From Candidatus Bathyarchaeota archaeon (lineage in GTDB: Archaea > Thermoproteota > Bathyarchaeia > Bathyarchaeales > Bathyarchaeaceae), in NCBI GenBank assembly GCA_050123155.1, contig JASFHP010000002.1, positions 3,990 to 67,989 on the forward strand: 64,000 nt of DNA, given 5' to 3'. Below, piece by piece: positions 5,197 to 59,536 of the stretch. The position numbers and the translations under genes were made by a program. The number at the start of each line of letters is the position of its first letter. Position 1 is the stretch's first letter. The notes under the pieces were generated by a model. It saw only the letters and a list, made by a program, of their open reading frames with translations. It searched no databases and had not been told where the DNA came from.

Positions 5197-5495
5197 CAAA
5201 TCACTTATACGCATTAAAAAAACGGAGATTGTTGAGATTTCACATTCTGTTGTATACGCGCGCTTATTAAAAGCAACAAAACACTAAACCCTTCTCGAGC
5301 AGAAACACAACTTTACGCAAAGTCTCGTAATTCTTTTGAAGAAATAATGCTTAAATACGGTCATGAACTGGGGATAGATGAGTCTTCAATTAGAAGATAG
5401 ATGCATAATAGTTGCGTGAATTAAGGAGCCGGAAAAAAAGACACTTCACTTTTCTGTTTTTAATAATTATCCGAAAAATTTGAGGTAATGTCAAC

Positions 5496-6935
5496 TTGAA
5501 AGTTCTTGTTACAAACCCGCCATGGCCTGGACCAGGATACGGAGCCAGATCCGATGTCAGATGGCCACATCGACGAAGCGACAAATATCTTGAATATCCA
5601 GTATATTTGGCGTATACTGTTGCTGTACTTGAAGAAGCGGGAATAGAAACGCATTTTATAGACGGAGTTGCAGACGATCTTTCTATAGAAGCCTTCGTAG
5701 AAGAGACAAAGAAAATCAATCCGGATTTAGTCGTCATCGAATGTTCTACTCCTTCAATAATAAATGACCTACATATTGCTAAGAGATTGAAAGAAGAATT
5801 GAAGAACACCTTCATACTTTTGGTTGGTTCACATCCTACCTATTTCCATAAGGAGATTATCAAAGAAAACGAATTTGTTGGCGCAATTGCTAGAGGCGAG
5901 TTCGAGTTAACGATAAGAGATCTGGCTTTAGCCCTTCAGCATGGACAACAACTTCAAGACGTTGCAGGAATCACATACAGGAATGGCGAAAGCGTGCAAG
6001 TAAATGAGGATCGCCCGTTGATCCAAGACTTGGATGCTCTTCCTTTTCCAGCAAGGCACATAGTCAAATCCAGCAGTTACAGAGAAGCTGTTTTTACAGG
6101 TCAAAGATGCACAACAATTGTGAGTTCCAGAGGCTGCCCACACAAATGTATCTTCTGCATATGGCCCAAAACTATGTATGGGCACAAGTTCAGACAAAGA
6201 AGCCCCGGAAACGTTGTTGACGAGATTCAACACGTTGTGGATGAATATGGAGTTGATGAAATATACTTTGATGACGATTGTTTTACGTTGGATAGGAAAA
6301 GGCTACTAGAAATATGCAGTGAAATCGTCAAACGCGGTATAAATGTAAAGTGGATGTGCCAAGCCAGAGTCGACAATATGACTCAAGAGGTTCTTGAGGC
6401 GATGAAAAAAGCTGGCTGTCATTACATTAAATATGGTGTTGAGTCAGGCTCGCAAGAGCTTCTTAATCGTATGAAGAAAGGCATCACCTTAGAAGCGGTG
6501 AGAAAAGCTTTCAGGGCAACCAGAAAAGTGGGCATTAAGTCTCAAGCCTTTTTCTTATTTGGTTTACCCTGGGAAACCCCTGAAACAGTTGCGAAGACAA
6601 TTGAATTTGCGAAAGAACTCAAACCTGACAGCGCTCAATTTGCTATAGTTGTTCCCCATCCGGGAACAGAACTCTATGAGTTATGCCTTGAAAAAGGATG
6701 GCTGAAATACAAAACTTGGGAAGACTTTGACTGCCGCTCACCCCTCATCGAAACAGACACCCTTTCAATCAAAGATCCAATGGAATATCGTACGAGAGCC
6801 TACAGGAAATTCTACATTAGACCCAGCTTCATTTTGCGAACCTCCCTTAAATTGTGGAACCCAAAAGAGGCAAGAAGAATCATAAAAAGCGCCAAATCGG
6901 TTTTTCAGAGAATCTCATACTATGGAGATTCCTAA
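5496..6935 (+). CDS. B12-binding-domain radical SAM enzyme (class B)
   Basis: CPHKCIFCIWP provides the CX3CX2C cluster motif. The N-terminal KVLVTNPPW...LVVIECSTPS segment is typical of the B12-binding domain. TTG start with a GAGGTAA RBS. Confidence 0.9.
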   Translation: MKVLVTNPPWPGPGYGARSDVRWPHRRSDKYLEYPVYLAYTVAVLEEAGIETHFIDGVADDLSIEAFVEETKKINPDLVVIECSTPSIINDLHIAKRLKEELKNTFILLVGSHPTYFHKEIIKENEFVGAIARGEFELTIRDLALALQHGQQLQDVAGITYRNGESVQVNEDRPLIQDLDALPFPARHIVKSSSYREAVFTGQRCTTIVSSRGCPHKCIFCIWPKTMYGHKFRQRSPGNVVDEIQHVVDEYGVDEIYFDDDCFTLDRKRLLEICSEIVKRGINVKWMCQARVDNMTQEVLEAMKKAGCHYIKYGVESGSQELLNRMKKGITLEAVRKAFRATRKVGIKSQAFFLFGLPWETPETVAKTIEFAKELKPDSAQFAIVVPHPGTELYELCLEKGWLKYKTWEDFDCRSPLIETDTLSIKDPMEYRTRAYRKFYIRPSFILRTSLKLWNPKEARRIIKSAKSVFQRISYYGDS

Positions 6936-9109: not shown

Positions 9110-10344
9110 AAATCCTTCAAATCAACAAATACTACTATCTCAAGAGCGGCTCTGAAAGGTATATGTTCAATGTTTCTTCACTACTAGAAAGCCATGGACA
9201 CAAAATTGTGCCCTTCGCTATGAAACATGAAAAGAACATAAACAGCGACTACTCGAAATATTTTGTAGAGAACATTGACTACGACAAAGTGATTAAAGAG
9301 AAACTGCTAAAAAAAATGTTTGCTGGCGTCAAGAGCATATATTCTTTTGAAGCCAGAAATAAGCTTCTGGGACTCGTTGAAAAAGAAAAACCAGACGTAG
9401 CACACATTCACAAGATTAGCAATACTCTTACACCCTCAATTCTGTATGCATTAAAAAAGAAATCAATTCCAACAGTTTTGACATTACACGACTATCGAAT
9501 AATCTGCCCAAACTACAACCTGTATAATCCTAGCACTTTCAGAATTTGTGAGGCTTGCAAAAACCACAGATACCTCAACGCCCTAACGAAGAAGTGCCAG
9601 AAATCATCTTATTTGGTAGGTTTGAATATAACATTAGAGTCCTATCTTTACCGTGTTATGGCGACATATGCTAATGCAATAGATCTCTTCATTTCTCCAA
9701 GCAAATTTGTAATGAATAAGGTCGTCGAATTCGGAATTCCCAAAGAAAGAGTGGTCTTTATTCCCCATTTCGTAAGATGTGATCATTATGCCCCAAATTT
9801 TGTTGACTCTGACTACATCTTATATTTTGGCAGGATTGAAAAGCACAAAGGTGTGAAAACATTAATCCAAGCCATAAAAAAGATTGATGAAATTAAATTA
9901 TATATTGTGGGAGAAGGCAACTTTAGAGAAGAACTGGAAAACTACGTCAACAAGGAAGGCATTAAGAACGTCTTCTTCTTTGGATTTGTAGCTGAAGATA
10001 AACTGATAAATTTAATCAAAAATTGTCTGTTCACAGTAGTTCCATCTGAATGGTACGAGCCCTTTGGCTTCACAGTTCTTGAATCATTCGCTTTAGGTAA
10101 ACCTGTGATCGGGGCTAATATTGGTGGGATATCCGAATTGGTGGATCACGGCTCCACTGGACTATTGTTCGAGTCAGGAAATGTCGAAGATTTGGCTGAA
10201 AAAATCAGCCATCTTCTAGACAATACGAATTTAGCAGTAGAAATGGGCAAAAGTGCCCGAAAAAAGGTTGAAAAGATTTACAATGAAGAGATACATTACA
10301 AAAAGTTATTCAAAGCGTATGAGAAGGTAATTTTGAAAACCTAA
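9106..10344 (+). CDS. GT4 (group 1) glycosyltransferase
   Basis: C-terminal EPFGFTVLESFALGKPVIGANIGGISELV (E-x7-E region). TTG start overlaps the upstream stop codon (TTGA). Confidence 0.85.
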   Translation: MKILQINKYYYLKSGSERYMFNVSSLLESHGHKIVPFAMKHEKNINSDYSKYFVENIDYDKVIKEKLLKKMFAGVKSIYSFEARNKLLGLVEKEKPDVAHIHKISNTLTPSILYALKKKSIPTVLTLHDYRIICPNYNLYNPSTFRICEACKNHRYLNALTKKCQKSSYLVGLNITLESYLYRVMATYANAIDLFISPSKFVMNKVVEFGIPKERVVFIPHFVRCDHYAPNFVDSDYILYFGRIEKHKGVKTLIQAIKKIDEIKLYIVGEGNFREELENYVNKEGIKNVFFFGFVAEDKLINLIKNCLFTVVPSEWYEPFGFTVLESFALGKPVIGANIGGISELVDHGSTGLLFESGNVEDLAEKISHLLDNTNLAVEMGKSARKKVEKIYNEEIHYKKLFKAYEKVILKT

Positions 10345-32559: not shown

Positions 32560-32652
32560 GTTTTTCTGCGTAACGCTTATCTGAATCTTTTATGTGCTTT
32601 CTCGAAGACATTGGATGGTGAAGTACAAAGGATGGGGAGGTGAAAATGTTTG

Positions 32653-32721
32653 ATGGAGGAAGAAGACTGGGAAGAAGATGAAGATGTTGATGAAGACGAG
32701 GATGAAGACGAGGAATGGTGA
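32653..32721 (+). CDS. Candidate 22-aa hyper-acidic micro-ORF (MEEEDWEEDEDVDEDEDEDEEW)
   Basis: GGAGGTGA at 32636-32643 lies 9 nt upstream of the ATG. It is below the ORF-track length cutoff, and there is no homology evidence. Confidence 0.25.
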   Translation: MEEEDWEEDEDVDEDEDEDEEW

Positions 32722-32826
32722 AACAGACCACAAAACAAAGGCAACTTTTTACTTTTTATGATTTAACTCCCTTCTGAACACAACATCGTCTAAAAAAACG
32801 ATTTCAACAAGATGGTTACGGTTTTT

Positions 32827-32882
32827 CAGAAAAAAAGACTGTTTTCAACAATGTACCTTTATTAGGCTCCTAATATGTGCCG
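32827..32882 (+). repeat. Intergenic motif copy A: GAAAAAAAGACTGTTTTCAACAAT...TATTAGG-ct-CCTAATATGTGCCG
   Basis: It aligns by eye with 60465-60517 (copy B), and its 3' half aligns with 63851-63885 (copy C). A partial tandem unit lies at 32790-32814. Confidence 0.6.
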
Positions 32883-33050
32883 TTTTCCGGATGTTCGGTT
32901 CAGTTGTGTTTGTAATGAATATGTCTATTTGGTTGTGTTTTTTGTTCAAGTTTGCGGCGATTTTTCATCTTTGATTTTTGATGCGATTGCTGGTTAAATT
33001 TGGTTGCATAACTTATTTCGGTCGATTTTTCGTCGTTTTCGATAGCTAAA

Positions 33051-33064
33051 TGAATGTTCATTCA
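33051..33064. promoter_or_regulatory. Inverted repeat TGAATG-tt-CATTCA upstream of the KaiC-like/amt promoter
   Basis: Perfect 6-bp arms. It shares its half-site with the palindromes at glnA (50028-50041) and lrp (50153-50168). Confidence 0.45.
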
Positions 33065-33108
33065 TCCATAATATCTATTATGGAAATATATTCAGTAAAA
33101 AGGAAATG

Positions 33109-33152
33109 TTTATATACAAACAGTCAATATTCTCCAGAATAATTGAATGAAG
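33109..33152 (+). promoter_or_regulatory. Core promoter/leader module TTTATATACAAACA-N21-TGAATGAAG of the KaiC-like/amt operon
   Basis: The same 14-mer, the same 21-nt spacing and the same TGAATGAA box occur on the minus strand upstream of glnA (50023-50068). Confidence 0.6.
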
Positions 33153-33163
33153 TGTGATTCAGT

Positions 33164-33907
33164 ATGGCAATGCAGAAAAAATCAAACATCGAATGGATCG
33201 ACATAGGAGTGGCTGGGCTGAACGAATTCATTCCCGGACTACCAAAAGGTGACGCGATTCTGGTGCGAGGTGAACCAGGTACTGGCAAAACTATCTGTTG
33301 TTTGCAGTTCCTTTACAAGGGCGCAAAGAGCGGCGAAAAGTGCTTGTACATCACTACAGAAGAAACTCCTGAATCGGTAATGCGAACTGGAGGGGAACTT
33401 TGGTCCGATTTTCCAGACCTGATCAGAGCCGGAACAATAAAGGTCATCAACATGTCCATAAGCGCAGAATACGCCAGCGAATACGGCATACTTAACAAGG
33501 CAGAAGCAATGAGCATTGCCGAAAAGGGATTTGCTGCGCAACCCAAAGCATCAAGAATCGTAATTGACTCACTGTCTTCACTGGAGAAGCGCCTGTCTAA
33601 CTTTGACGAGTTCCGAGAAGTCTTCATGAGGCTACTGCTGGAAACCAAACACAAAGGAGCAACCTTACTACTCACCGCCGAAGGCATCCCCCTGACTCCA
33701 GACATCACCGAATACCTTGTAGACCACCTGATATACCTTGACTACCGGAAACAAGACACACAGTGGACACGTGTTTTCATTTTTCGAAAGTCACGAAGCG
33801 TACCCCTAAAGCCGCAGATACTTAAACTGAACATCGAGCCAGGCGGACTGTCAGTAGAAGAAACACCATTCGCACTAAATCCTGTGTGGTTCCAAAGCAA
33901 AATCTAA
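33164..33907 (+). CDS. Single-domain KaiC/RecA-superfamily ATPase (paralog 1)
   Basis: Walker A GEPGTGKT and Walker B-like RIVIDSLSS. The 247-aa size is typical of archaeal KaiC-like proteins. Confidence 0.85.
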   Translation: MAMQKKSNIEWIDIGVAGLNEFIPGLPKGDAILVRGEPGTGKTICCLQFLYKGAKSGEKCLYITTEETPESVMRTGGELWSDFPDLIRAGTIKVINMSISAEYASEYGILNKAEAMSIAEKGFAAQPKASRIVIDSLSSLEKRLSNFDEFREVFMRLLLETKHKGATLLLTAEGIPLTPDITEYLVDHLIYLDYRKQDTQWTRVFIFRKSRSVPLKPQILKLNIEPGGLSVEETPFALNPVWFQSKI

Positions 33908-33929
33908 ACAAAATAATGAGTGATTTGAA

Positions 33930-34670
33930 ATGATGATGAAACAACCAAGCAATATTGAATGGATTGACATCGGGTTGGATGGTCTGGAAAAGTTTATTCC
34001 CGGCATTCCAAGAGGTGACGCGATTCTGGTGCGAGGTGAACCAGGTACTGGCAAAACTATCTGTTGTTTGCAGTTCCTTTACAAGGGCGCAAAACAGGGC
34101 GAAAAGTGCTTGTACATCACTACAGAAGAAACCCCAGAAACAGTAATGCGAACTGGAGGAGAACTCTGGTCTGACTTCCCCAGCCTGATTAGAAATGGAA
34201 CAATAAGGGTCGTCAACTTATCTATCACTGCAAGCTACGCCAGCGAATACTGTCTGATTGACAAAGCAGAAGCTATGGGTATTGTTGCAAAAGGGTTAGC
34301 TGCGCAACCTGGAGCAAGCAGAATCGTGATTGATTCACTGTCTTCACTGGCAAGGCGGTTGTCCAATTCTGATGAATTCCGTCAAGTCTTCATGAAGCTA
34401 CTAATGGAAACCAAAGGCCAAGGGGCAACCGTACTATTTAGTGCCGAAGGCATTCCCGCATCTCCGGGCATCACTGAATACCTTGTAGACCACTTGATAT
34501 ACCTTGACTACCGGAAACACGATGTTGTGTGGACGCGCGTTTTCCTTCTCCGAAAGTCGCGAAGCGTACCTCTGAAGCCGCAGATACTTAAACTGAACAT
34601 CAAAGCAGGCGGACTGTCAGTGGAAGAGATACCATTCTCGCTGAAGCCTGTTTGGTTCGGCGGCAGTTAA
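33930..34670 (+). CDS. Single-domain KaiC/RecA-superfamily ATPase (paralog 2)
   Basis: Same motifs as paralog 1. It is collinear with paralog 1 at a constant 766-nt offset. Confidence 0.85.
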   Translation: MMMKQPSNIEWIDIGLDGLEKFIPGIPRGDAILVRGEPGTGKTICCLQFLYKGAKQGEKCLYITTEETPETVMRTGGELWSDFPSLIRNGTIRVVNLSITASYASEYCLIDKAEAMGIVAKGLAAQPGASRIVIDSLSSLARRLSNSDEFRQVFMKLLMETKGQGATVLFSAEGIPASPGITEYLVDHLIYLDYRKHDVVWTRVFLLRKSRSVPLKPQILKLNIKAGGLSVEEIPFSLKPVWFGGS

Positions 34671-34684
34671 TCGGGTGATGAATA

Positions 34685-36004
34685 ATGACTTTAGATCAAG
34701 CAACTGAAGCATGGGCAGCGTTCCAGCAGAACTTCTTCGTAGGATGGGCACCCGTAGCCATTTTCATCATGGCAACTGCAGGTTTCGCCCTGTTCTATGC
34801 AGGAATGGTCCGCAAAAAGAACGTCACCCACACGATACTTCAAATCAACGTAGGCTGGACACTAGCGTTCGTTATATACTTCCTCGTAGGCTTTCCGTTG
34901 GCATACTACGTGGCTCAACCCGTGTTCGGGTTACCACAATTCGTTCCAACCATCGCTAACCCGCTGCCACCGTTATTGTCTGAAACAGGTGCTTATGGCA
35001 TAGCCGCAAGCCCCTCTGGACTTGGCGACCTTGCAACATGGTTCAAAATGGCGATGTTCGCTATCACCGTCGTAGGCATCGTCCCCGGAGGCATGGCAGA
35101 ACGTGACAAGTTCTGGGGCTGGATCATAGCCGCTGTAGGCGTAGCAGGCTTCATCTACCCTGTTGTTGAGCACTGGGTTTGGGGTGGAGGCTGGCTAAGT
35201 GAAATTGGTTTCATCGATTACGCAGGTTCAGGTGTAGTTCACCTAGTCGGAGGTACACTTGCACTAACTGGAGCATACGTGATTGGTCCAAGGATAGGAA
35301 AATTCGTAGGCAAAAACAAAATGCCACGGACATTCTTTGGGCACAGCATTCCGCTGTCTGTAATTGGTGCATGGCTACTGGCTTTCGGCTGGTTCGGCTT
35401 CAATGTCGGCTCAAGCGTAGCAGCAGACCCAATGACAATCAACGTCGAACTCGCATGGGTCTCACTGACCACGGCAATGTGTATGGCAGGAGGCATGTTC
35501 GGTGCAGCTATCACCTCAAGGGGTCACGTGTTAACAAGCATGGTTGGCTTGCTTGCGGGAGCTGTCACAATATGTTCCGGAGCCGCAATTGTTCATCCTC
35601 TAGCAGGGTTCGTGATTGGCGTAGTCGCGGGAGTAATCACAACATTCACCATTGGACTCCTAGAACACAAGCTTCACATCGACGACGCATGTGGATGTTT
35701 CCCAGTTCACGCAGCATGTGGAGTCTGGGGGCTACTCGCAACAGGGATATTCGGTGGAACCGCTCTTGGAGCACACCCACTCTACGGATTCGCAGACACG
35801 GCAACATGGATCAACCAAATTGGAATACAGGCAATCGGTGCAGCCGCAATAGCACTATGGGCTGGAGCAATGGGACTGATAATGTTCACTGTCTTGAAGA
35901 AACTGAAAATACTACGCGTCACAAGAGATGAAGAACTCTACGGACTCGACATTGCACTGCACAAGACACTAGCATATCCTGAAGACATGATGGAAGAAAA
36001 GTAA
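34685..36004 (+). CDS. amt: Ammonium transporter (Amt/MEP family)
   Basis: DYAGSGVVHLVGG and other Amt signature segments, with ~11 TM helices. It starts 14 nt after the stop of KaiC-like paralog 2. Confidence 0.92.
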   Translation: MTLDQATEAWAAFQQNFFVGWAPVAIFIMATAGFALFYAGMVRKKNVTHTILQINVGWTLAFVIYFLVGFPLAYYVAQPVFGLPQFVPTIANPLPPLLSETGAYGIAASPSGLGDLATWFKMAMFAITVVGIVPGGMAERDKFWGWIIAAVGVAGFIYPVVEHWVWGGGWLSEIGFIDYAGSGVVHLVGGTLALTGAYVIGPRIGKFVGKNKMPRTFFGHSIPLSVIGAWLLAFGWFGFNVGSSVAADPMTINVELAWVSLTTAMCMAGGMFGAAITSRGHVLTSMVGLLAGAVTICSGAAIVHPLAGFVIGVVAGVITTFTIGLLEHKLHIDDACGCFPVHAACGVWGLLATGIFGGTALGAHPLYGFADTATWINQIGIQAIGAAAIALWAGAMGLIMFTVLKKLKILRVTRDEELYGLDIALHKTLAYPEDMMEEK

Positions 36005-36082: not shown

Positions 36083-36231
36083 CTTAATTTGTGATTGTTT
36101 TCACCACAACTATAGCTCGCATGATCAATAAGTGAATCAGCCGCTTTTTTGCCAACGCGTTAAAACCACGTTTCGAAGACCTTAAATATTGAGGCACTGA
36201 TGAACTTTTCAACATCATGGATGGATAACAG

Positions 36232-39099
36232 TTGGTTTCTCGCTCAACTAGAAGCAAACTGAAAGTGGCTTTTTTTGCTAACTTGATTGTTTTAGCTGTT
36301 GCAGTTCCAAGTTACTTGTATGTCGAGTCGCTGATTCCCAAACCCGCCGAATTTCAAGTAGCTGACTTGGTTTTTGACCAAAGCTGGGTTCAAGTTGGAA
36401 CTCCCGTGGAAATCTCGGTTAACGTAACCAACATTGGAGACTTGAGCGGTAACTGTTCGGTAACCCTGACAATAGATGATGCTCCGATAACAACGAAAAC
36501 GGTTCAGCTTTCAGCGGCAGAAACTGCAACATTATCCTTCACTGCCCCAGATTTAGCGGTGGGAAACCACACAGTCGCCATAGGCGATTTAACTGGATCA
36601 GTTAGAGTTACGGTGGAAGCGCCAATCCGACCAGCCGAACTACAGATAACAAATCTGGCGATTAGCCGAAAAGAAGCTGGAATCGGAGAAACTGTAACCG
36701 TTTCAGCTACGGCGACCAACATTGGGGATGTGGCTGGCGAGTTTTCGCTGAATCTTTTTGTGAATGACGAAAAGCGGGAAACCAAGGTTGTCCAGTTGGA
36801 TAGCGGCGAAACCGCAACTGTAGAATTTGAAGTTGTTGAAGATGTTGAGGGCGACTACGCGGTCAGGTTAGGCGCTTTAACTGACTCCTTTAGTGTTACT
36901 TCTGATCCTCCAGAGGTTGAGCCTGCAGAGTTTCAGGTAACCGAGTTAACGGTTAATCCTTCTTCTGTTGTGGCTGATGAAGTTGTGGAAATTTCTGTTA
37001 GGGTAACCAATGTTGGAGAAGCCAGCGGCAGTTATACTGTGGACCTCAAAATCGATGATACCGTAAGAGAAACAAAGAATGTTGCCTTGTCTGGCGGCGC
37101 AACTGTGGTTGTAACCTGTGAAGTAACTGAGACATATCCGGGCGTGCACAGTGTTGAGATAGGCGACCTGTCAGGGTCATTCACTGTTGAAGGCTTGGTT
37201 CCTGCATCAGAGCACATAGACCTGCATAATGTCAGGGTAAGCCCCTATGAAGTTGTGGATGGCGATACAGTAACCATCAAAGCTAAAGCCGATAATCTGG
37301 CGAATGAAGAGGGTACACTTCAGGTAAGGGTTTTGCTGGATGAAGTGGTTGAGACAACTGAAATGTTCCAGTTGGCTGCGGCTGCAAAAGATGTGCCAAT
37401 CGAAATCACAGTTACAGCAGAATACACGGGGGATGGAACAGAATCAGATGGATACAACGTTAAGTTACTGAATCTCGGAAATCAAAGCGATACTCATTCA
37501 GGATACTTCTTGGTTGTTCCTGATGGATTCCACACTCTCAGTATTTCAGCGAACGCTATCGGCATGGAGTTTACCCTAAACGGCGAAACTTATTCTGCAC
37601 CATATAGTGCACTCTTGCCTGAGGGAACTTACACCATAACAGTGCCTGACGGTTTCAAAGGCGGAGGAACATTCTGGAATTGGACCAGCTGGAGTGATGG
37701 ACCGACAGACCTCACCAGAGTTATAGAGCTAAACCAGCGTACGTCTCTTATTGCCACCTATTTGAACTGTAAATCTTGTCCTTCCCTGTACGTTTGGAAT
37801 GGAGAGGAATACTTGTACACTGGCGAAATATCTGATGGCACAGGCTACTTGGGAATTTTTGACTACTTCCGAGAAGACGGAAGCCTATCCTTCCTTTACA
37901 GCGTTCCATGGGACTACCTCAAATTGAATGCGAGCCGACTTGAAGCAAACGACGGCTACTACGACATGGTCATCACCCAAAAATGGGACGAAATCGCCTA
38001 TGTGGATTCTGCCACATTAATGATTGTTGAACACTCAGCCGATGTGGATGTGTATTCAACCAAAGCCACGTACCTGTATGAGCCTGAGGGGCAAGGCACA
38101 ATTTACTCTGTCAGCAAAGACCCTCGTTCCCCAGTTTCCTGCGTCACAGGAGATGGAGAAGACGTATTGTCTTTAGTCTTGGAACGTGACGGAGTGACCA
38201 CCGATGGCAACGAATTCACATGGGACACCTTGGAGTTAGACTTAGGCGACCTCTCTGATGCAGAAGAAATTAAGCTCATAGTCGCCGGAACAATAATTTA
38301 CTCTACGGGTGAAGAGCAGGGGGAATGGGCTGCGCAGTTCTATAATCAGCCTGGTGAGCAGCCGTTTCCGCCTCCTTATATGGAGGTTAAAGACGCTGAA
38401 GGCAACTGGGTTCGTGTTGCGGATAACAGGCAGTTCCCGTTGCTTGATGTTACGCCCGACTGCTTTGTGGTAAACTTGACTGGCGTCTTCCTGACGGATG
38501 ATTACTCCATTAGGATACACACTTTCTTCAACACCGAATTCGATTATATCGGAGTGGACACAACATCACAGCAGGATGTGACTGTTCGGGAGGTAACTGT
38601 TTCATCTGCCACTTTGTACCAAGCTTTCACAACTAATTCCACTTCAACAGGAAATTTCACGCGATACGGCGACGTAACCGAGCTTATGGAATACGCAGAC
38701 GACATGTATGTGATAACGCGACAAGGAGACGAAATACACCTGCTGTTCCCCGCTGAGACGGATCCAGTTGCAGAAGGTATGGAGTGTGATTACTTCGTGT
38801 TTGCTAGTGTATGGTTCAAAGTTGATGGGCTGTTTTACGTAGACTTCAATGTGGAGCCTTTACCGTTCCATAACATGACTTGCTTCCCGTATGATACAGA
38901 AACAGAAAGCTATCCCTACGATGCAGAACATCTAGAGTATCTGGAGGAATACAACACCCGAGTGATAGAAGCTACGCAACAAGAAACGGGTTCCCAACAA
39001 GAAACTGCAGCAAATCTGATTTCTTTCATGCTCTTTTTGATAGTGCCTTTAATGTTCCAGAGACGCCCACAACATGCACTGCCACGGTTTTCCCGTTAA
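36232..39099 (+). CDS. Large surface protein: N-terminal TM anchor, 4 CARDB-like repeats, ~500-aa C-terminal domain and a C-terminal hydrophobic segment
   Basis: The repeats share the pattern PAEFQV..L.....V..G..V.ISV.VTN[IV]G..[SA]G. TTG start. Confidence 0.75.
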   Translation: MVSRSTRSKLKVAFFANLIVLAVAVPSYLYVESLIPKPAEFQVADLVFDQSWVQVGTPVEISVNVTNIGDLSGNCSVTLTIDDAPITTKTVQLSAAETATLSFTAPDLAVGNHTVAIGDLTGSVRVTVEAPIRPAELQITNLAISRKEAGIGETVTVSATATNIGDVAGEFSLNLFVNDEKRETKVVQLDSGETATVEFEVVEDVEGDYAVRLGALTDSFSVTSDPPEVEPAEFQVTELTVNPSSVVADEVVEISVRVTNVGEASGSYTVDLKIDDTVRETKNVALSGGATVVVTCEVTETYPGVHSVEIGDLSGSFTVEGLVPASEHIDLHNVRVSPYEVVDGDTVTIKAKADNLANEEGTLQVRVLLDEVVETTEMFQLAAAAKDVPIEITVTAEYTGDGTESDGYNVKLLNLGNQSDTHSGYFLVVPDGFHTLSISANAIGMEFTLNGETYSAPYSALLPEGTYTITVPDGFKGGGTFWNWTSWSDGPTDLTRVIELNQRTSLIATYLNCKSCPSLYVWNGEEYLYTGEISDGTGYLGIFDYFREDGSLSFLYSVPWDYLKLNASRLEANDGYYDMVITQKWDEIAYVDSATLMIVEHSADVDVYSTKATYLYEPEGQGTIYSVSKDPRSPVSCVTGDGEDVLSLVLERDGVTTDGNEFTWDTLELDLGDLSDAEEIKLIVAGTIIYSTGEEQGEWAAQFYNQPGEQPFPPPYMEVKDAEGNWVRVADNRQFPLLDVTPDCFVVNLTGVFLTDDYSIRIHTFFNTEFDYIGVDTTSQQDVTVREVTVSSATLYQAFTTNSTSTGNFTRYGDVTELMEYADDMYVITRQGDEIHLLFPAETDPVAEGMECDYFVFASVWFKVDGLFYVDFNVEPLPFHNMTCFPYDTETESYPYDAEHLEYLEEYNTRVIEATQQETGSQQETAANLISFMLFLIVPLMFQRRPQHALPRFSR
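36343..37477 (+). repeat. Four tandem CARDB-like coding repeats (~90-95 aa each)
   Basis: Read from the translation: the units begin PAEFQVADL, RPAELQITNL, EPAEFQVTEL and EHIDLHNVRV. Confidence 0.7.
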
Positions 39100-48013: not shown

Positions 48014-48274
48014 TTACGGCGTGAACATTGACAGCATGGTTTCGGTGTGAACCACACTGGGGTGCTGCTCAATCATTTCGTAGATAATCTTTGTCAGCTC
48101 CTCGGAACTGTTTGCCTCTATCACTGCAATGGCGTCGAATCTTCCCAGAACCGAGTTAGCCATCGTCACGCCCTTTATCTTCCTTGACTGCACGATCTCC
48201 TCTGACGTTCCAGGTCTCATAGTCAAGAGTACGAAGGCTCTTATCTTTTTGCTACGGAGATCCTTTGAAGACAA
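48014..48274 (-). CDS. Stand-alone Lrp/AsnC-type RAM (ligand-binding) domain protein
   Basis: The beta-alpha-beta-beta-alpha-beta pattern (AFVLLTMRPGTSEEIV...GRFDAIAVIEANSSEEL...VVHTETML) parallels the C-terminal half of the Lrp at 50182-50652. Confidence 0.7.
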   Translation of the reverse strand: MSSKDLRSKKIRAFVLLTMRPGTSEEIVQSRKIKGVTMANSVLGRFDAIAVIEANSSEELTKIIYEMIEQHPSVVHTETMLSMFTP

Positions 48275-48292
48275 CGTTTTTCTCTCCCTCTT

Positions 48293-48523
48293 TTAGAACA
48301 GCGTGATCGCCGTCTCGGTGTGGACGATGTTTGGGTCTTTCTCGATTACTTTGTATACGAATTCGTTGAGTGTTTCTAGGTCTGGAGCTTCCAAGACAAC
48401 TATGACGTCGTGCCGTCCGTAAACGGAGTCAGCATGTAGAACATTTTGGAACCGCATTTTGATGGCTTTGACTACGTCTTCGGATGTTCCAGGTCGGGTT
48501 TCAATTAGTAGATATGCTTTCAT
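48293..48523 (-). CDS. Stand-alone Lrp/AsnC-type RAM domain protein
   Basis: KAYLLIETRPGTSEDVV...GRHDVIVVLEAPDLETL...IVHTETAI. It lies 33 nt downstream of glnA on the same strand. Confidence 0.75.
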   Translation of the reverse strand: MKAYLLIETRPGTSEDVVKAIKMRFQNVLHADSVYGRHDVIVVLEAPDLETLNEFVYKVIEKDPNIVHTETAITLF

Positions 48524-48556
48524 GCTTATTCACCTCTCTCTCCATTACTTTATTTT

Positions 48557-50014
48557 CTAATAGTCCAAGTATTTCATTATTTCCCACGGAGTGACATAGA
48601 GGCAGTACTGGTTCCAGTCGTTGGTCTTGTATTCTATGAAGGCATCGAATATGTGGCTTCCAAGAGCCTTATGGACTACCTCGTCGCTCTTCATCGCTTC
48701 CAAAGCATCCTTCAGTGTTGTCGGCAACTCTTTAATGCCAAGAGCGCGTCTCCGTTCAGGGCTCAGCTCATAAACGTCCTCGTCTACTGGGTCGCCGGGG
48801 TCAATCTTCTTCTTTATGCCGTCAAGTCCAGCCATCAGTATACACGACAAGGCTAGGTATGAGTTGCATGATGGATCAGCGGCACGTAATTCAGCGCGTT
48901 TGGCTGCAGCGTGCGCGGGGCCTTTGAAGTATACCGGAACACGTACCATAGCTGACCTGTTGCGTCGTGACCACATTATGTAAATGGGAGCCTCGAAACC
49001 TGGCACAAGTCGCTTGTAAGAGTTTACTGTTGGGCAATTCACGGCGGTTATGGCTCTGGCGTGCTCTAGTAAGCCTCCGATGAAGTATCTGCCTGTTTGG
49101 CTGAGCTCAGCGTACTTGTCTTTTTCGTCATACATCACGTTCTTTTTGCCCTTCCACAGAGATGCGTGAACGTGCATGCCACTGGCGTTGTCAAGGTAAA
49201 CTGGTTTAGGCATGAAAGTGGCGATTAACCCATGCTTCTTTGCCACGTTTTTGGCGACAAACTTGTAGAACATTGTCCTGTCAGCGGTTTTCACCAGCTC
49301 TCCATACTTGAAGTCTATCTCTATCTGTCCTGCCGTGGCAACCTCGTGGTGGTGCATCTCGATTTCTGTGTCAAAGTTTTCTTCCAACAGTGAGGCAACC
49401 TCGTTTCGATACTCAACGGTTGTGTCCTCTGGCGGGGGTCTGAAGTATGCCTCTTTTGGTCTTAGTGTGTGGCTTCCCGGGGTGGTTTCTGGGGATTTAG
49501 GTACAACTCTTGGTGCGCCCCACGAGTCTCCGGCGCCGCCTTTTGGGCTGACCCACATGTCCCAGACAAGGTTTGTGGGGTCTATGGAACTGAAGACGAA
49601 GTATTCCAGTTCTGGACCGAAGAAGCCAGTGTAGCCCATGTCTTTCGCTGCTTGGACTGCCTTTCTGGCTACGTATCCTCTTGGGTCTACGTTTGATGGT
49701 TCTGTGCCTCCGAATGCTTCGTAGATGTCGCCTAGGATTATGGCGCTCTTCTGTTGCTCGTCGGTTGTCCATGGGATGATGGCTAATGTTTCTGGGTCGG
49801 GTTTGAGAATCATGTCGGATTCGTGTATGGTTTTGAAGCCTCGTACAGATGAGCCGTCGAAGCCGATGCCTGCGGTTAGGGCTTGTCCCTCCGTGTAGTG
49901 TTTTGCGGGTATCACTACGTCCTGCATTAGACCTCGCATGTCTACGAAGGCTGTGTGTACCCATCGGATTTTGTTTTTCTTTAATGTTTCTTTGGCTGTG
50001 TTAATGGCCTCCAT
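48557..50014 (-). CDS. glnA: Glutamine synthetase type I
   Basis: FMPKPVYLDNASGMHVHASLW and other GS signature blocks. I prefer the start at 50014 (GGTGA RBS; matches the KaiC-like leader geometry). An alternative ATG lies at 50026. Confidence 0.93.
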   Translation of the reverse strand: MEAINTAKETLKKNKIRWVHTAFVDMRGLMQDVVIPAKHYTEGQALTAGIGFDGSSVRGFKTIHESDMILKPDPETLAIIPWTTDEQQKSAIILGDIYEAFGGTEPSNVDPRGYVARKAVQAAKDMGYTGFFGPELEYFVFSSIDPTNLVWDMWVSPKGGAGDSWGAPRVVPKSPETTPGSHTLRPKEAYFRPPPEDTTVEYRNEVASLLEENFDTEIEMHHHEVATAGQIEIDFKYGELVKTADRTMFYKFVAKNVAKKHGLIATFMPKPVYLDNASGMHVHASLWKGKKNVMYDEKDKYAELSQTGRYFIGGLLEHARAITAVNCPTVNSYKRLVPGFEAPIYIMWSRRNRSAMVRVPVYFKGPAHAAAKRAELRAADPSCNSYLALSCILMAGLDGIKKKIDPGDPVDEDVYELSPERRRALGIKELPTTLKDALEAMKSDEVVHKALGSHIFDAFIEYKTNDWNQYCLYVTPWEIMKYLDY

Positions 50015-50022
50015 GTTATTCA

Positions 50023-50068
50023 CCATTCATTCAGCTGAATGTGAAATTATTACATGTTTGTATATAAA
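50023..50068 (-). promoter_or_regulatory. glnA core promoter/leader module TTTATATACAAACA-N21-TGAATGAATGG, overlapping the palindrome CATTCAGCTGAATG (50028-50041)
   Basis: Read on the minus strand. It has the same architecture as 33109-33152. Confidence 0.6.
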
Positions 50069-50099
50069 TGTTTCTGATAAACTGAAGGAAAACTTATAT

Positions 50100-50122
50100 A
50101 CTTGTTCCGTTAATGAACAAGT
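50100..50122. promoter_or_regulatory. Inverted repeat ACTTGTTC-N7-GAACAAGT in the glnA-lrp divergent region
   Basis: Perfect 8-bp arms, adjacent to the TATA-like CTTATATA at 50093-50100. Confidence 0.35.
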
Positions 50123-50152
50123 GTTCACGGCAAAACGAAAAACAAATTTGTC

Positions 50153-50168
50153 GAATGATTAATCATTC
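50153..50168. promoter_or_regulatory. Perfect 16-nt palindrome GAATGATTAATCATTC, 14 nt upstream of the lrp start codon
   Basis: Read directly from the sequence. It shares the GAATG half-site with the glnA and KaiC-like/amt elements. Confidence 0.5.
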
Positions 50169-50181
50169 AATCAAGGAGGAA

Positions 50182-50652
50182 ATGAAACTGAGTAATGGCT
50201 CATCTCATAAAGTTGATGACGTTGACCGAAAAATCATCCGTTTACTGCAAGAGGATGCCAGAAAAAGCTTCAACAAGATAGCTGAAAGTCTCGGTATAGC
50301 TGTTGGAACAGCCTACAACCGAGTGAAGAATCTGGAGGATAACGGCATCCTGAAAGGCTACACGATAATGTTGGATTCGGCTAAGCTCGGTTATGGCTTG
50401 ACGGCTCTCATACTTATTGAGGCGGAGGGGCGGTATCTGCCCGAGGTGGAGAAGGAACTTGCCAAGCTGGACGAGGTTATATGCATCTATGACATCACCG
50501 GAGACTATGACATAGCGGTGGTTGCTCGATTCAAAAACAGGAGTACACTAAACAACTTCATCAAATCGACACTGAAGATGCCCCACGTAAGCAGAACAGT
50601 CACAAACGTTGTACTCAACGTCGTCAAAGAAGACTTCAGAGTAAAAGTATAA
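50182..50652 (+). CDS. lrp: Lrp/AsnC-family transcriptional regulator (HTH + RAM domain)
   Basis: DDVDRKIIRLLQEDARKSFNKIAESLGIAVGTAYNRVKNLEDNGIL HTH region followed by a RAM domain. AGGAGG just upstream of the ATG at 50182. Confidence 0.85.
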   Translation: MKLSNGSSHKVDDVDRKIIRLLQEDARKSFNKIAESLGIAVGTAYNRVKNLEDNGILKGYTIMLDSAKLGYGLTALILIEAEGRYLPEVEKELAKLDEVICIYDITGDYDIAVVARFKNRSTLNNFIKSTLKMPHVSRTVTNVVLNVVKEDFRVKV

Positions 50653-55911: not shown

Positions 55912-56123
55912 AACCTAATGCTGCCCTAATAACTAACACTATTAATGAGTTAACATCACTAAAGTTTATGTGCGGAGAAAACGGTTAACATTTAGTCCTT
56001 CCCATACTCTAATATGCAACCAAGTGTATACACTAAAGCGTAGGATTCTCTTAGTGAAGATGGGCAAAAGACTTCTAATTCTTTTTTGCCGTTTATTTTG
56101 ACCATTCTACTGAAAAATATAAA

Positions 56124-56300
56124 GTGGAAAATGTGAAATTAGCAAATAATCAGTTTAACAAGTCAGTGTCAGAAGAAGTAAGAACGTTTGAAACAGAAAT
56201 ACTTTACCTTAATGGTAAAAAGCGAGAAGAAGCAATGAACGCTTATCATAAACTTTTGTTATCTTCAGCAGACCAACTGATTTACTTCACAAGAACGTAG
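56124..56300 (+). CDS. Possible 58-aa helical protein (GTG start; below the ORF-track cutoff)
   Basis: My own translation of an otherwise ORF-free stretch. No homology evidence. Confidence 0.2.
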   Translation: MENVKLANNQFNKSVSEEVRTFETEILYLNGKKREEAMNAYHKLLLSSADQLIYFTRT

Positions 56301-56353
56301 TATGAGGGATCAAAGTCTCTTAAGGAAAATTTGAAAGGAGGGAACATGAGGAT

Positions 56354-56554
56354 TTGGCTATGTCTGGGATTCAATACAAAATGCATCAAAAAATTATTCG
56401 TAAATTTAGGAAAGCAGGAGCCATTTCATGGGAGAAAGCTGTAACATTTGATGAGGCTGACCTTGATTTGCAGGAGCAGTATTGGTTAAGCTATTTTGCT
56501 GGAACTTTTCTTGGCAGAATAAAAAAAACTAAAGATCATCTATATTACATCTAG
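56354..56554 (+). CDS. Hypothetical small protein
   Basis: ORF only. No motif recognised. Confidence 0.3.
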   Translation: MAMSGIQYKMHQKIIRKFRKAGAISWEKAVTFDEADLDLQEQYWLSYFAGTFLGRIKKTKDHLYYI

Positions 56555-56579
56555 GAGTGCACACGCGGTACGAAATACT

Positions 56580-56792
56580 TCAAGTTATGACTTTCCGTTT
56601 AAGATATGCAACAGTAAACAACATGCCCGTCTCTAGGCGAATATTTTGAACACCCACCAATTCCCAGCCCTCTTCCCCCAAATCGTTCAATTCGTTTTGC
56701 ACATTTTGTATAATAGGATTCTTTTCTCGCTCATGTCGATTAATATGAACCTTGGTCTTCAACGCAAGCACAATATACTCCCATTTCACCAA
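56580..56792 (-). CDS. DUF4177-like small protein
   Basis: WEYIVL...LNDLGEEGWELVGV is the characteristic pattern. Confidence 0.55.
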   Translation of the reverse strand: MVKWEYIVLALKTKVHINRHEREKNPIIQNVQNELNDLGEEGWELVGVQNIRLETGMLFTVAYLKRKVIT

Positions 56793-57045
56793 TTACTAAC
56801 ACCTCAAACACTACTAATGTTAAATCAAGCAGTAAATATCTTTGTTTGAAATGTTTCCAACTACCGCTGACGCTAACCATTTTTTGGTTGTAACACTCTA
56901 GACACCTATACGAAAGTTAATTAGGAGGACTGGTGTAACATAAGCCAAGCAGTTAAGTACTTTCTAAAGAAGGTAGGACAGTAATAAGCGGTTTTACTCT
57001 TTTTTCAAGGCACTTCTAGCTTATAAAAGCAAACGAGGTGATAGA

Positions 57046-57258
57046 ATGTCATATTCATACAGTAACATAGAGAAACCAGTTGCAGTTGACAAAGAATACG
57101 AAGCCGAAATCGAGGACATAAGCAGAAAAGGCGACGGCATCGCAAAGATTCAGGGCTTCATCATATTTGTGCCAAACACTAAGCAAGGAGAACACGTGAA
57201 ATTCAAGGTAACTAGGGTTGGAAACAGGTTCGCGATTGGCGAGTTAGTGCAAGCCTAA
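57046..57258 (+). CDS. Stand-alone TRAM-domain RNA-binding protein
   Basis: EYEAEIEDISRKGDGIAKIQGFIIFVPNTKQGEHVKFKVTRV is the TRAM OB-like pattern. Confidence 0.8.
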   Translation: MSYSYSNIEKPVAVDKEYEAEIEDISRKGDGIAKIQGFIIFVPNTKQGEHVKFKVTRVGNRFAIGELVQA

Positions 57259-57327
57259 TCGGAATAATGTCTGAAACTAGATTCAATGTAGCTATCGAGA
57301 AACTCTAAACATAGGGAGGTGTATTGC

Positions 57328-57609
57328 ATGTCAAAAGACCCAAACATAGTATATATTGGAAGGAAACCGGTCATGAGCTACGTGTTAGCAGTGATAACAA
57401 GTTTCAACTCGTCTGATACCAAAGAAGTAACGGTGAAGGCAAGGGGACGATCTATGACAACGGCTGTAGATGTCGCTGAAGTTGTTAAGCGCCGATTCAT
57501 GAAAGATCTGAAGGCAAGTAAGATAACGATTGGAACTGAAGAACTACAGCAAGAAGAAGGCGGAACAAGAAACGTTTCAACGATGGAAATAATGCTAGCG
57601 AGAGACTGA
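57328..57609 (+). CDS. albA: Alba (Sac10b-family) DNA/RNA-binding protein
   Basis: NIVYIGRKPVMSYVLAVIT...VKARGRSMTTAVDVAEVVKRRF. GGGAGGTG RBS 8 nt upstream of the ATG at 57328. Confidence 0.85.
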   Translation: MSKDPNIVYIGRKPVMSYVLAVITSFNSSDTKEVTVKARGRSMTTAVDVAEVVKRRFMKDLKASKITIGTEELQQEEGGTRNVSTMEIMLARD

Positions 57610-57728
57610 TAAAACGGCAGATGCAGCCTTCTTTCAACAATCTCTTGTTTCTGCAACCTTTTCCCCATTTCTTGCACTAATTTTGCAGTGCACAAAGTTA
57701 TTTCAAAGATTGAATTATATTTAAAGAG

Positions 57729-57950
57729 GTGATTATCTTGTCTAGGAAACTGACGGAGTTTGAGAAAAAAGTTTATGACTTTATCAAAGAACACGATGAA
57801 ATGATTGTTTCAAATGTACCGGAGGACATGAGCGGCGCAATACCTAATCTCAAAAGCGCTGGACTCCTTGAAACCTTCAGAAAACCTGCAAATCCTTGGG
57901 CCTCAAAGAAAAAGACTTTCGTGAAAGTCATAATCAGAAATCATCCTTAA
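57729..57950 (+). CDS. Small winged-helix-like protein (hypothetical)
   Basis: The LTEFEKKVYDFIKEHDEMIVSNV pattern resembles MarR/TrmB-type wHTH N-termini. Weak call. Confidence 0.35.
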   Translation: MIILSRKLTEFEKKVYDFIKEHDEMIVSNVPEDMSGAIPNLKSAGLLETFRKPANPWASKKKTFVKVIIRNHP

Positions 57951-58211
57951 ACTCGTCCTATGCGCACGCAGACTTAGGTTAATTATTCACTCCAATCACT
58001 TAGTATCTCTGAGATTATGAACCCACAACCAATGGAGATATTTATCCATCCACTTCCCGCAACTCCCACCTTTTTTCAATTTTAAGGGTTAAAATTTACC
58101 CAAACCTAAAATGTTCCTTCTTTTTGGGAATTATAGTATCTCCAAATTTTTAAAAACTAAAACAAAGATTCTATTCCAGACAAGAAACTTGGTGAAGGAG
58201 TCAAACAGCCC

Positions 58212-59315
58212 GTGAACAAGCTGCTCATCATCGGATCTGCACCACACAAGAAAGTGGACAGCATCAAATGGACACAACCTTTTCGGTACATGGAAAAATA
58301 TGACTCCCTCATAATCGACCTCACCTCATTTCCAAAAAATTATCCCCCAACACTCTTCAACAATATAGGTTTGCTGAAGAGAACAGCCCGCATCTTCATC
58401 CGAGATAACAAAGAAATCTTCTGCATAATGGAAAAAGCCCTAAGAATCCCATTTAAACAAATCCCCTTAAACTACTCGTGGATTCCCTTCCCACAAAAGC
58501 TGACAGTGAACCCAATGATACTGGGAAGAACAATAGTCCTCAAGGATGAAAGATTCTCAGAATACATGGAAAACGTCGAAAAATGGGAGAACGAACTATT
58601 CTGGGAAAACACAGCCAACTGCAGTTTTGATCCCATAGCAATCAACAAATCCCAGAACCCAGTAGCCGCTACCCTCACAATAAACAATAGAGGAAAAATC
58701 CATTTCTTGCCAAAAACAACAAAAATCAGCCGCTCTAAGGCAATAAAGCTTCTGATGGGTTTAGCCTCTGGAGAAGAGCCAGAAGAGTATCCGTGGTTAG
58801 ACTCGATAGAAATTCCGGAACTCAACCAAACTGACGACCCATGGAACAACAGTATAGCTCCCGAAGAATACCGCAACCTGTTCTCGATAGACCATAAGAA
58901 AGTCGTGAAAGCGGTTCAATTAATTCTGGAAGATTTGGGTATACAGACTCTTCCAAATGCCGAGTTTGACCTGATAGGCTTGAAGAGCAGCATTGTGGTT
59001 AAAACTGCTTCAGCAAAAAGAAAAGTTGAAGCTCAAAACGCCAAAATCAGCCAACTGGCAAAATTCATTGAAAACCAGAGAAGAAACGAGAAGATTATCT
59101 TCATAGCTAACACGTACACAGACTTGCCTATTAACGAACGAGCAGACAAGGAGCATCTCGATGTTTCAGTGAAGCTGTTTCTTGAAACAAACAACACGAT
59201 ATTCTTGACAACTTTGAGTCTGTATCATCTCTGGAAAAAAGTCGTCACAGACCAAATCAGCGCCCAAGAAGCCTCCTTCCTGCTCCACAACGAAACCGGC
59301 GAAATAACAATATAA
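58212..59315 (+). CDS. Uncharacterised 367-aa two-domain protein (orphan)
   Basis: Long GTG-initiated ORF. The C-terminal part has an alpha-beta-beta-alpha-beta pattern (VVKAVQLILEDLG / FDLIG / SIVVKTAS / IIFIAN) reminiscent of nuclease-like folds, but without a clear acidic triad. Confidence 0.55.
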   Translation: MNKLLIIGSAPHKKVDSIKWTQPFRYMEKYDSLIIDLTSFPKNYPPTLFNNIGLLKRTARIFIRDNKEIFCIMEKALRIPFKQIPLNYSWIPFPQKLTVNPMILGRTIVLKDERFSEYMENVEKWENELFWENTANCSFDPIAINKSQNPVAATLTINNRGKIHFLPKTTKISRSKAIKLLMGLASGEEPEEYPWLDSIEIPELNQTDDPWNNSIAPEEYRNLFSIDHKKVVKAVQLILEDLGIQTLPNAEFDLIGLKSSIVVKTASAKRKVEAQNAKISQLAKFIENQRRNEKIIFIANTYTDLPINERADKEHLDVSVKLFLETNNTIFLTTLSLYHLWKKVVTDQISAQEASFLLHNETGEITI

Positions 59316-59536
59316 CACACAATCACCAATGCATCGCCAATTTTTGGTTGCCGAATTTTAGGCGACTTCCAATTTTGCTCGTCTATACGTATGTTTACGT
59401 ATTTTTTCGAATTCTCGCTGGTTTGTACTTTTTCTTATTGCTTCTTACTTGTCTATACCTTCCTGTGTGAAAACCACATGCGAACGCACAAATTTTAAAT
59501 ATGATTTAGATGTAGCAACCATACTGAGGAAGATTT

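Follow-up and report, generated by a model that had tools for sequence, protein, structure and literature searches.

In a 64-kb stretch of DNA from a Candidatus Bathyarchaeota archaeon (contig JASFHP010000002.1; the whole stretch is called the window below), two operons that serve ammonium assimilation appear to begin with the same promoter, and the question raised by this locus is whether one regulator governs both and, if so, through which DNA element. The first operon (33164-36004, plus strand) encodes two KaiC-like ATPases, kaiC-like 1 (33164-33907) and kaiC-like 2 (33930-34670; PF06745 in both), and an ammonium transporter, amt (34685-36004; PF00909). The second (48014-50014, minus strand) encodes glutamine synthetase, glnA (48557-50014; PF00120/PF03951), followed by two RAM-domain genes, RAM gene 1 (48293-48523) and RAM gene 2 (48014-48274; PF01037 in both). 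The original prediction held that these operons share an identical 14-mer, the same 21-nt spacing, the same downstream box and a nearly equal distance to the ATG, and when both regions were reread base by base, all of this was confirmed. The 14-mer, TTTATATACAAACA, occurs exactly twice in the window, on the plus strand at 33109-33122 and on the minus strand at 50055-50068. In both cases, 21 nt separate it from TGAATGAA downstream (33144-33151 and 50026-50033), past which lie a Shine-Dalgarno (SD)-like sequence, GTGAT in kaiC and GGTGA in glnA (50020-50024), and the start codon (33164 and 50014, respectively). A composite pattern, TTTATATACAAACA-N21-TGAATGAA, with up to three mismatches allowed, matched the window only at 33109-33151 (plus) and 50026-50068 (minus), and it was matched in 0 of 100 dinucleotide-preserving shuffles.

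The similarity of the two promoters goes further than had been noticed. It reaches about 60 bp farther upstream, where both carry a TGAA-N6-TTCA palindrome at matching offset; both have TTCAG 18 nt 5' of the TATA box; and in the downstream box it is TTGAAT[G/A]A that forms the conserved core. Thus, TTTATATACAAACA and TGAATGAA are the core of a conserved promoter/operator cassette of about 125 bp. Counts of the single words did not reveal it: TGAATGAA by itself was not enriched in the window (6 found versus 4.9 expected), so the signal is carried by position, context and arrangement and not by the 8-mer, and the raw count of TGAA-N6-TTCA over the whole window (6 versus 3.35) was not significant, only its placement being informative. 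TTGAAT[AG]A occurs five times in the 64 kb, two of these in the kaiC and lrp control regions, and glnA has the variant CTGAATGAA. The remaining matches to TTGAATRA or to the palindrome in the window (10313, 10442, 51218, 35200, 52380 and 57272) were dismissed as lying in coding sequence or having no TATA box.

Conservation was assessed in 130 loci of 20 kb gathered around glnA and kaiC (1.55 Mb of related DNA). The window is that of a Bathyarchaeum-like archaeon: homologues of the KaiC-like proteins and of GlnA came from Bathyarchaeia metagenome-assembled genomes (MAGs), and GlnA was 88-94% identical to that of Candidatus Bathyarchaeum genomes. Forty-five distinct kaiC1/kaiC2 promoters gave a gap-free alignment between the TATA box and the ATG, and an exact TGAA-N6-TTCA was found at the upstream position in 45/45, against a background of 0.13 per kb. 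The original prediction had made its case depend on the box being conserved in orthologous promoters; it was present as TTGAAT[G/A]A at +30..+40 from the TATA start in these 45 kaiC1/kaiC2 promoters. Ungapped promoter identity (0.60-0.70) was only marginally higher overall than identity at four-fold degenerate sites (0.51-0.66), because upstream indels break the register, and a per-column information profile was used in its place.

In this profile, the kaiC promoter resolves into discrete blocks, with offsets counted from the TATA start. The first is the palindrome TGAATGTTCATTCA (TGAA-N6-TTCA; 33051-33064), which starts 58 bp upstream and gives information peaks at -58..-55 (TGAA, the left arm) and -47..-45 (TTC(A), the right arm). 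A second site, the ATTCAG half-site (33090-33095, plus), abuts the transcription factor B recognition element (BRE) on its upstream side; its TTC is conserved at columns -17..-15, and glnA has CTTCAG at equal offset. The BRE AAGGAAATG, the TATA box TTTATATA (33109-33116) and CAAACA together occupy 33100-33122 (plus), including the 14-mer, and their columns are conserved (BRE at -11..-3; TTTATATAcAA at 0..+10). Both promoters show the archaeal arrangement of a purine-rich BRE abutting an 8-bp A/T TATA box, as AAGGAAATG-TTTATATA (33100-33116) in kaiC and CAGAAACA-TTTATATA (50061-50076, minus) in glnA. Between the TATA box and the predicted start site lies a spacer element, GTCAATATTC (33123-33132, plus), conserved as TCAAT at +16..+20, where glnA has GTAATAAT. 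The start-site box TTGAATGAA (33143-33151, plus), which contains TGAATGAA, is the strongest block after the TATA box (+30..+40, TTAATTGAATA), and from TATA geometry the kaiC transcription start is predicted at about 33139-33142. Finally, a second TGAA-N6-TTCA, TGAAGTGTGATTCA (33148-33161), overlaps the SD-like GTGAT (33154-33158) just 5' of the ATG, and GGTG (SD) is conserved at +44..+47; in most kaiC orthologues, the arms of this second dyad are TGAAT-N8-ATTCA around GGTGA.

Two further features lie in or near this control region. An inverted repeat, CCATAAT-ATCT-ATTATGG (33066-33083), between the upstream palindrome and ATTCAG, is specific to the window and unconserved in orthologous promoters. 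Upstream of the promoter, an unusually long non-coding stretch (a gap of about 600 bp, 32560-33163) holds a tiny, extremely acidic open reading frame, MEEEDWEEDEDVDEDEDEDEEW (32653-32721, plus), preceded by GGAGGTGA.

The glnA promoters of close relatives retain the full layout. In more distant ones (75-83% GlnA identity), a yTGAAyr box is still found 29-32 nt after the TATA start, the TATA box with CAAA is kept down to about 75% protein identity, and the palindrome is usually present about 120 nt 5' of the ATG. When the kaiC and glnA promoters of the window were compared with each other, identities were concentrated in the columns conserved among orthologues (34/44, versus 10/24 elsewhere; p=0.007). 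On this evidence we are confident that the cassette is a real, selected co-regulation module.

The original prediction had named, as its other point of failure, that the 14-mer might be the ordinary promoter of this genome. This was not the case, since other promoters in the window mostly have (T/C)TTAAATA with unrelated flanks. Among TATA-like boxes before open reading frames in the window, the variants TTTATATA and CTTATATA were found at kaiC, glnA, lrp (a Lrp/AsnC-family gene divergent from glnA) and two other places, and near-matches to the 14-mer in the 1.55 Mb of related DNA coincided, with few exceptions, with kaiC or glnA promoters, read forwards or in reverse. A weight matrix built from kaiC promoters only (-20..+41) was scanned over both strands of all loci; at 20 bits or more, it recovered the kaiC promoters (61) and glnA promoters (14, at 21-38 bits) and no other gene. 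Furthermore, 118 of the 146 intergenic TGAA-N6-TTCA palindromes lie within 200 bp of the starts of glnA, lrp, kaiC or amt. The module, its conservation and its specificity therefore support the view that one shared regulator or regulon stands behind both operons, co-regulation being what they point to and the regulator a candidate named from its genomic position and family.

Relatives suggest further members. A second, distant amt paralogue (amt2; 28-30% identity) is present in L002 and L003 (5278-6650) and in L089 and L090 (about 5000-6430), located in the latter pair between kaiC1 and kaiC2. The amt2 promoters of L002 and L089 have two to three TGAA-N6-TTCA palindromes, one directly after the TATA box, as well as a TTGAAyA box. 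In two other loci (L013, 16080-17719; L114, about 470-1600), a second lrp paralogue is divergent from a gene for a 337-aa protein with an Asn_synthase domain, which had no Pfam match to a glutaminase domain; between the two genes lie TATA boxes arranged back to back, the same palindrome and a CTGAACAAA box. The regulon is thus best read as glnA-RAM-RAM, lrp and kaiC-kaiC-amt, with amt2 and the asparagine synthase-like gene added in relatives. Beside the second amt of L002 and L003 lies a gene (4375-5248) with a CAP12-PCTIR_TIR domain, a type found in defence systems.

The glnA promoter of the window is one half of a divergent control region, the other half being that of lrp. On the glnA side, the TATA box TTTATATA (50061-50068) and CAAACA form the second copy of the 14-mer (50055-50068, minus) and are conserved in orthologues. 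The CTTCAG half-site (50082-50087, minus) lies 18 nt upstream of this TATA box, and a ATTCAGCTGAAT palindrome (50029-50040) together with the CTGAATGAA box (50026-50034) occupies 50026-50040 (minus) at the glnA transcription start, which geometry predicts at about 50038-50040. The upstream palindrome, TGAACAAGTGTTCA (50114-50127), varies hardly at all among 19 close orthologues. It is 59 bp upstream of the glnA TATA box, and seen from the other side it falls 21-34 nt past the TATA box of lrp, where transcription of that divergent gene is predicted to start. The lrp TATA box, CTTATATA (50093-50100, plus), has the BRE GAAGGAAAA upstream and is kept as TATATAAGCTTTCC when read on the glnA-sense strand. 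In the lrp leader, a further palindrome, GAATGATTAATCATTC (50153-50170), with TTGAATGA (50163-50170, minus), lies just 5' of the lrp SD and is kept as ATTGAAT(G/A)ATT in close orthologues. Among 54 loci with lrp divergent from glnA, the palindrome was found at -100..-145 from the glnA ATG in 40, and yTGAAyr was found within 60 nt of the ATG in 49.

Another Bathyarchaeia clade (L028, about 9930-9960; L032; L040) has glnA without a divergent lrp and without the TGAAT box. Here, a long palindrome, GGTTTCCAT-N5-ATGGAAACC, lies between the glnA TATA box and the start codon, and it recurs at second glnA paralogues (L028, about 12414; L040, about 4847) and, in weaker form, in L062 and L069. This is apparently a different operator for glnA in that clade.

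Altogether, we think it somewhat more likely than not that the cassette is the mark of a regulon for nitrogen assimilation in Bathyarchaeum-like archaea, with the Lrp protein encoded beside glnA as its most likely regulator. The lrp gene (50182-50652, plus) has the Pfam domains HTH_AsnC and AsnC_trans_reg, i.e., a winged helix-turn-helix (PF13404/PF13412) and a RAM domain (PF01037), and its product aligns over its full length with FL11, ST1022 and LrpA, which places it in the Lrp/AsnC (FFRP) family. The dyad symmetry of the sites leads one to expect a dimeric DNA-binding protein, and Lrp is the best candidate for several reasons. The glnA palindrome on the predicted lrp start is in the classic autoregulatory position; in the 72 glnA loci, both the box (Fisher p=4.5e-6) and the palindrome (p=1.7e-4) tend to accompany a divergent lrp; and lrp is linked to glnA in 54 of these 72 loci and, independently, its orthologue is linked to kaiC-amt in a separate clade. 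In addition, throughout Bathyarchaeia, Lrp keeps the recognition segment GI(A/S)VGTAYNR wherever the motif occurs, and the nearest solved relative has a site with the same arms. Covariation of the recognition residues with operator variants was uninformative, the residues being too conserved. FFRP targets are clusters of imperfect sites that include the regulator's own promoter (PMC2995911), and here we found four or five TGAA/TTCA blocks per promoter, with a palindrome on the predicted lrp start site and a dyad in the lrp leader. That the glnA-linked Lrp is itself the binder we judge to have about an even chance.

The closest solved structure to this Lrp is FL11 (PH1519, E 8e-29), with ST1022 among the closest (E 1e-20). 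FL11 of Pyrococcus OT3 (PDB 2E1C) recognises TGAAA-WWW-TTTCA, autoregulates, and binds as a dimer on single sites or as an octamer over a long stretch (PMC2715240, PMC2995911). The TGAA/TTCA arms are common to this site and the window palindrome; unlike the latter, which is 14 bp and even, the FL11 site is 13 bp and odd, its recognition residues are L, A, E, S, T and H as against F, A, V, G, T and Y in the window Lrp, and its effector is lysine.

Several observations weigh against this reading or narrow the ground on which it stands. Outside the BRE/TATA columns, the concentration of identities in conserved columns is a trend only (p=0.07). The loci were chosen around glnA and kaiC, so that the controls are their neighbours and not whole genomes; all transcription starts are placed by TATA geometry only; and the Fisher tests are uncorrected for phylogeny. 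As to the binder, the site, yTGAAy-N4-rTTCAr, is even in length (14-16 bp) and departs from the FFRP operator form: every characterised archaeal FFRP site is odd, 13 or 15 bp, of the form abcdeWWWedcba (PMC2715240). The FFRP contact code, applied to F24, A34, V35, G36, T37 and Y39, predicts T at position a and A at d, and not clearly G at b or Y at e; it is thus partly predictive for TGAAy and neither confirms nor excludes Lrp. Moreover, a TGAACAAATATTCA palindrome was found 35 bp upstream of an ArsC/low-molecular-weight-phosphatase-like gene (CTHNSTRS motif; L097, about 1209-1690) just upstream of kaiC1, so the 4-6-4 pattern by itself is not confined to nitrogen genes. The palindrome also resembles the operator core of ArsR/SmtB proteins, TGAACAxxTGTTCA.

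These last points are also what favours a different binder, namely that the operator set is real and is occupied by another winged-helix factor encoded elsewhere, NrpR-like or of the ArsR/SmtB type, with lrp a mere target; we consider this possible but doubtful. The 4-6-4 geometry, which does not fit the odd 13-bp FFRP form (PMC2715240), is that of the NrpR operator, GGAA-N6-TTCC, through which glnA, glnK-amtB and nif are controlled in methanogens from upstream sites (PMC2723118). Like the NrpR regulon, the Bathyarchaeial one has a single operator common to the promoters of glutamine synthetase and the ammonium transporter, with 4-bp arms and a 6-bp spacer, and some copies lie at or just after the TATA box or start site (lrp, amt2). 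However, the arms are TGAA/TTCA and not GGAA/TTCC, the outer bases thus being T/A instead of the G/C of NrpR; the palindrome at glnA and kaiC lies about 50 bp upstream of the TATA box; KaiC-like ATPases take the place of glnK; and the lineage is Thermoproteota/Bathyarchaeia and not Euryarchaeota, NrpR being a euryarchaeal regulator that is also present in certain Bacteria (PMC2723118). Pfam annotation of the window found no NrpR-like or ArsR-type regulator gene beside these operons, though no search aimed at NrpR was made. The linkage of lrp to glnA and, in a separate clade, to kaiC-amt, and a glnA palindrome on the predicted lrp start, the usual place of autoregulation in this family, also speak for Lrp over such a factor.

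It could also be supposed that TTTATATA plus CAAA with a particular initiator forms a special core-promoter class, reflecting an alternative TFB/TBP or promoter strength, with no dedicated regulator. The nitrogen-module promoters do have TTTATATA or CTTATATA where most other promoters in the window have (T/C)TTAAATA, and the most conserved blocks include the BRE/TATA and start-site regions. But such a class leaves unexplained a palindrome that is invariant (45/45) and lies some 50 bp before the TATA box, the palindromes on the lrp start and after the amt2 TATA box, and the TTCAG half-site, and the dyad symmetry points to a dimeric protein; we regard it as improbable.

Still less likely, in our estimation, is that the TGAATGAA region acts as RNA, either as a conserved 5'-leader hairpin around the SD or as a target of a small RNA or protein, with control at the level of translation. 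By prediction the box falls within the mRNA (+5..+13), the SD of kaiC leaders lies between TGAAT and ATTCA, and in the orthologue L097 both leader arms have changed together. Against this, the leaders fold no better than shuffled sequences (z = -0.45, 0.0 and -0.37), the glnA leader has no second arm, no Rfam match in the window reached the gathering score, and TGAA/TTCA words are also found 5' of the TATA boxes, in DNA not expected to give rise to RNA.

Lastly, that the similarity is chance, or only historical through recent promoter copying, with no shared regulation, is scarcely credible: kaiC-amt is clustered with glnA and lrp in other clades, so that the kaiC promoter could descend from the glnA/lrp control region, and the kaiC1 and kaiC2 promoters are clearly duplicates, but chance is excluded by the shuffles, the two promoters have diverged at unconstrained positions while agreeing at orthologue-conserved columns, and the cassette has persisted in genomes that share no more than 51-66% identity at four-fold degenerate sites.

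Under control by the glnA-linked Lrp, the cassette might work as follows. A single dimeric or oligomeric winged-helix regulator, most likely this Lrp/AsnC protein, would bind the TGAA/TTCA sites, possibly modulated by the two stand-alone RAM proteins co-transcribed with glnA; being under the module themselves, these RAM-only proteins could feed back through mixed assemblies with Lrp. The effector may be an amino-acid nitrogen signal, with glutamine the obvious candidate. A palindrome on the lrp start site, or directly after the amt2 TATA box, would be placed to block recruitment of RNA polymerase; lrp would then be autorepressed and amt2 repressed. The positions of the upstream palindrome and of the TTCAG half-site next to the BRE at glnA and kaiC-amt seem suited to activation or anchoring, and the start-site box could permit repression when an oligomer occupies the whole cassette, which would resemble the dimer-versus-octamer switch of FL11. 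The leader would be short (about 23 nt), with GGTGA as the SD.

The presence of KaiC-like genes in this regulon was examined through their domains and neighbours. The two paralogues are 79% identical, with Walker A intact, and have the RecA-like ATPase domain of KaiC (PF06745, E 1e-42), with GEPGTGKT and a hydrophobic-D motif. Clock KaiC has two domains (CI+CII, about 500 aa) and works with KaiA/KaiB; the window proteins have a single domain (247 and 246 aa), and their neighbours are amt and a CARDB-domain protein, not kaiB or kaiA, and they are therefore KaiC-like and not clock KaiC. Across Bathyarchaeia, kaiC stays paired with amt over a range of Amt identity from 68% to 97%. The kaiC1 and kaiC2 promoters are clear duplicates of each other: in most genomes each paralogue has its own promoter, while in the window kaiC2 begins 23 bp after kaiC1. 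A pair of RAM genes stands downstream of glnA in the majority of the 72 glnA loci.

Gene order in other clades is informative on how the two operons came to share a cassette. In distant clades (L117-L128; e.g., L119, 2760-6074), the order is lrp-rhh-kaiC-amt, where rhh encodes a 179-aa protein of the CopG/RHH_1 type, the C-terminal domain of which is uncharacterised, and in L035 and L039 (6530-11452) all of these genes form a single cluster, glnA<>lrp-rhh-kaiC-amt. In the window, rhh is absent and kaiC-kaiC-amt lies 16 kb from glnA/lrp. This arrangement looks as if such a cluster had been split, with kaiC-amt either retaining the common control cassette or gaining it. The claim that the KaiC-like genes are functionally tied to nitrogen metabolism is thus supported by the kaiC-amt synteny, by the glnA<>lrp-rhh-kaiC-amt clusters and by a kaiC-only matrix that picks out glnA promoters. 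No PII gene was found next to amt in loci of the window's clade, and glnK follows amt in two distant-clade loci only (L120 and L123). One possibility, suggested by gene neighbourhood, is that the KaiC-like ATPases act on Amt in place of GlnK; a literature search on KaiC and ammonium transporters in archaea found nothing relevant.

Parts of this arrangement have counterparts elsewhere. In Halobacterium salinarum, Lrp activates the adjacent glnA, and lrp lies beside glnA in many haloarchaea (PMC8229911, PMC2995911). As there, the Bathyarchaeial Lrp/AsnC gene is next to glnA in opposite orientation, implying Lrp-type control of glutamine synthetase; whereas there no defined operator or amt-shared module is reported, the Bathyarchaeial promoters are divergent and back to back, with a precise palindrome, and glnA is followed by two RAM-only genes. 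Closer in lineage, Sa-Lrp of Sulfolobus acidocaldarius is glutamine-responsive and binds the control regions of glnA, gltB and gdhA (PMC3584215). Sa-Lrp and Grp/ST1022 resemble the present case in being Thermoproteota Lrp-family regulators tied to central nitrogen metabolism with glutamine as effector, but Sa-Lrp is a "versatile, architectural" regulator by the title of that report (PMC3584215), whereas the Bathyarchaeial sites are sharply conserved palindromes. Like amtB-glnK operons, where PII controls ammonium transporters, the operon would place Amt and small signalling proteins of the cytoplasm on one nitrogen-controlled transcript, with the difference that two single-domain KaiC-like ATPases precede amt and that in the window's clade no PII gene accompanies it.

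A nitrogen regulon with a shared operator is therefore already known, and the Lrp-glnA linkage has precedents. What is new is the lineage, the operator sequence, a geometry atypical for Lrp, the conserved 125-bp cassette, the RAM-RAM pair in the glnA operon and the KaiC-like/Amt target. A literature search on nitrogen regulation in Bathyarchaeum found no description of how transcription of nitrogen genes is controlled. Bathyarchaeia are among the most abundant sediment archaea and have barely been cultured, and the present results offer for them a precise cis-element, a candidate regulator with two RAM partners and a first predicted regulon. They also connect a family of KaiC-like ATPases with ammonium transport where glnK is not adjacent to amt, and the cassette is usable as a marker of nitrogen-regulated genes in Bathyarchaeal MAGs. 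It is tempting to go further and propose a self-contained circuit, undescribed in any archaeon, in which an atypical Lrp with a 14-bp operator, tuned by RAM-only proteins, would control glnA, lrp and Amt, and in which paired KaiC-like ATPases (ancestrally with the RHH protein) would replace PII/GlnK as partner or gatekeeper of Amt; we think this proposal, taken as a whole, unlikely.

Other features of the neighbourhood were also recorded. In loci of the Bathyarchaeum clade, amt is always followed by a gene for a large CARDB-domain protein of 916-955 aa (window, 36232-39099; L001, 13412-16198; L002, 13638-16388), and in the window this gene has its own TATA box at 36181. A tRNA scan of the window found nothing. 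Finally, the G+C content of the window is about 39-40% at 1-28000 and 56000-60000 and 44-47% at 28000-56000, and the nitrogen genes lie in the block of higher G+C.

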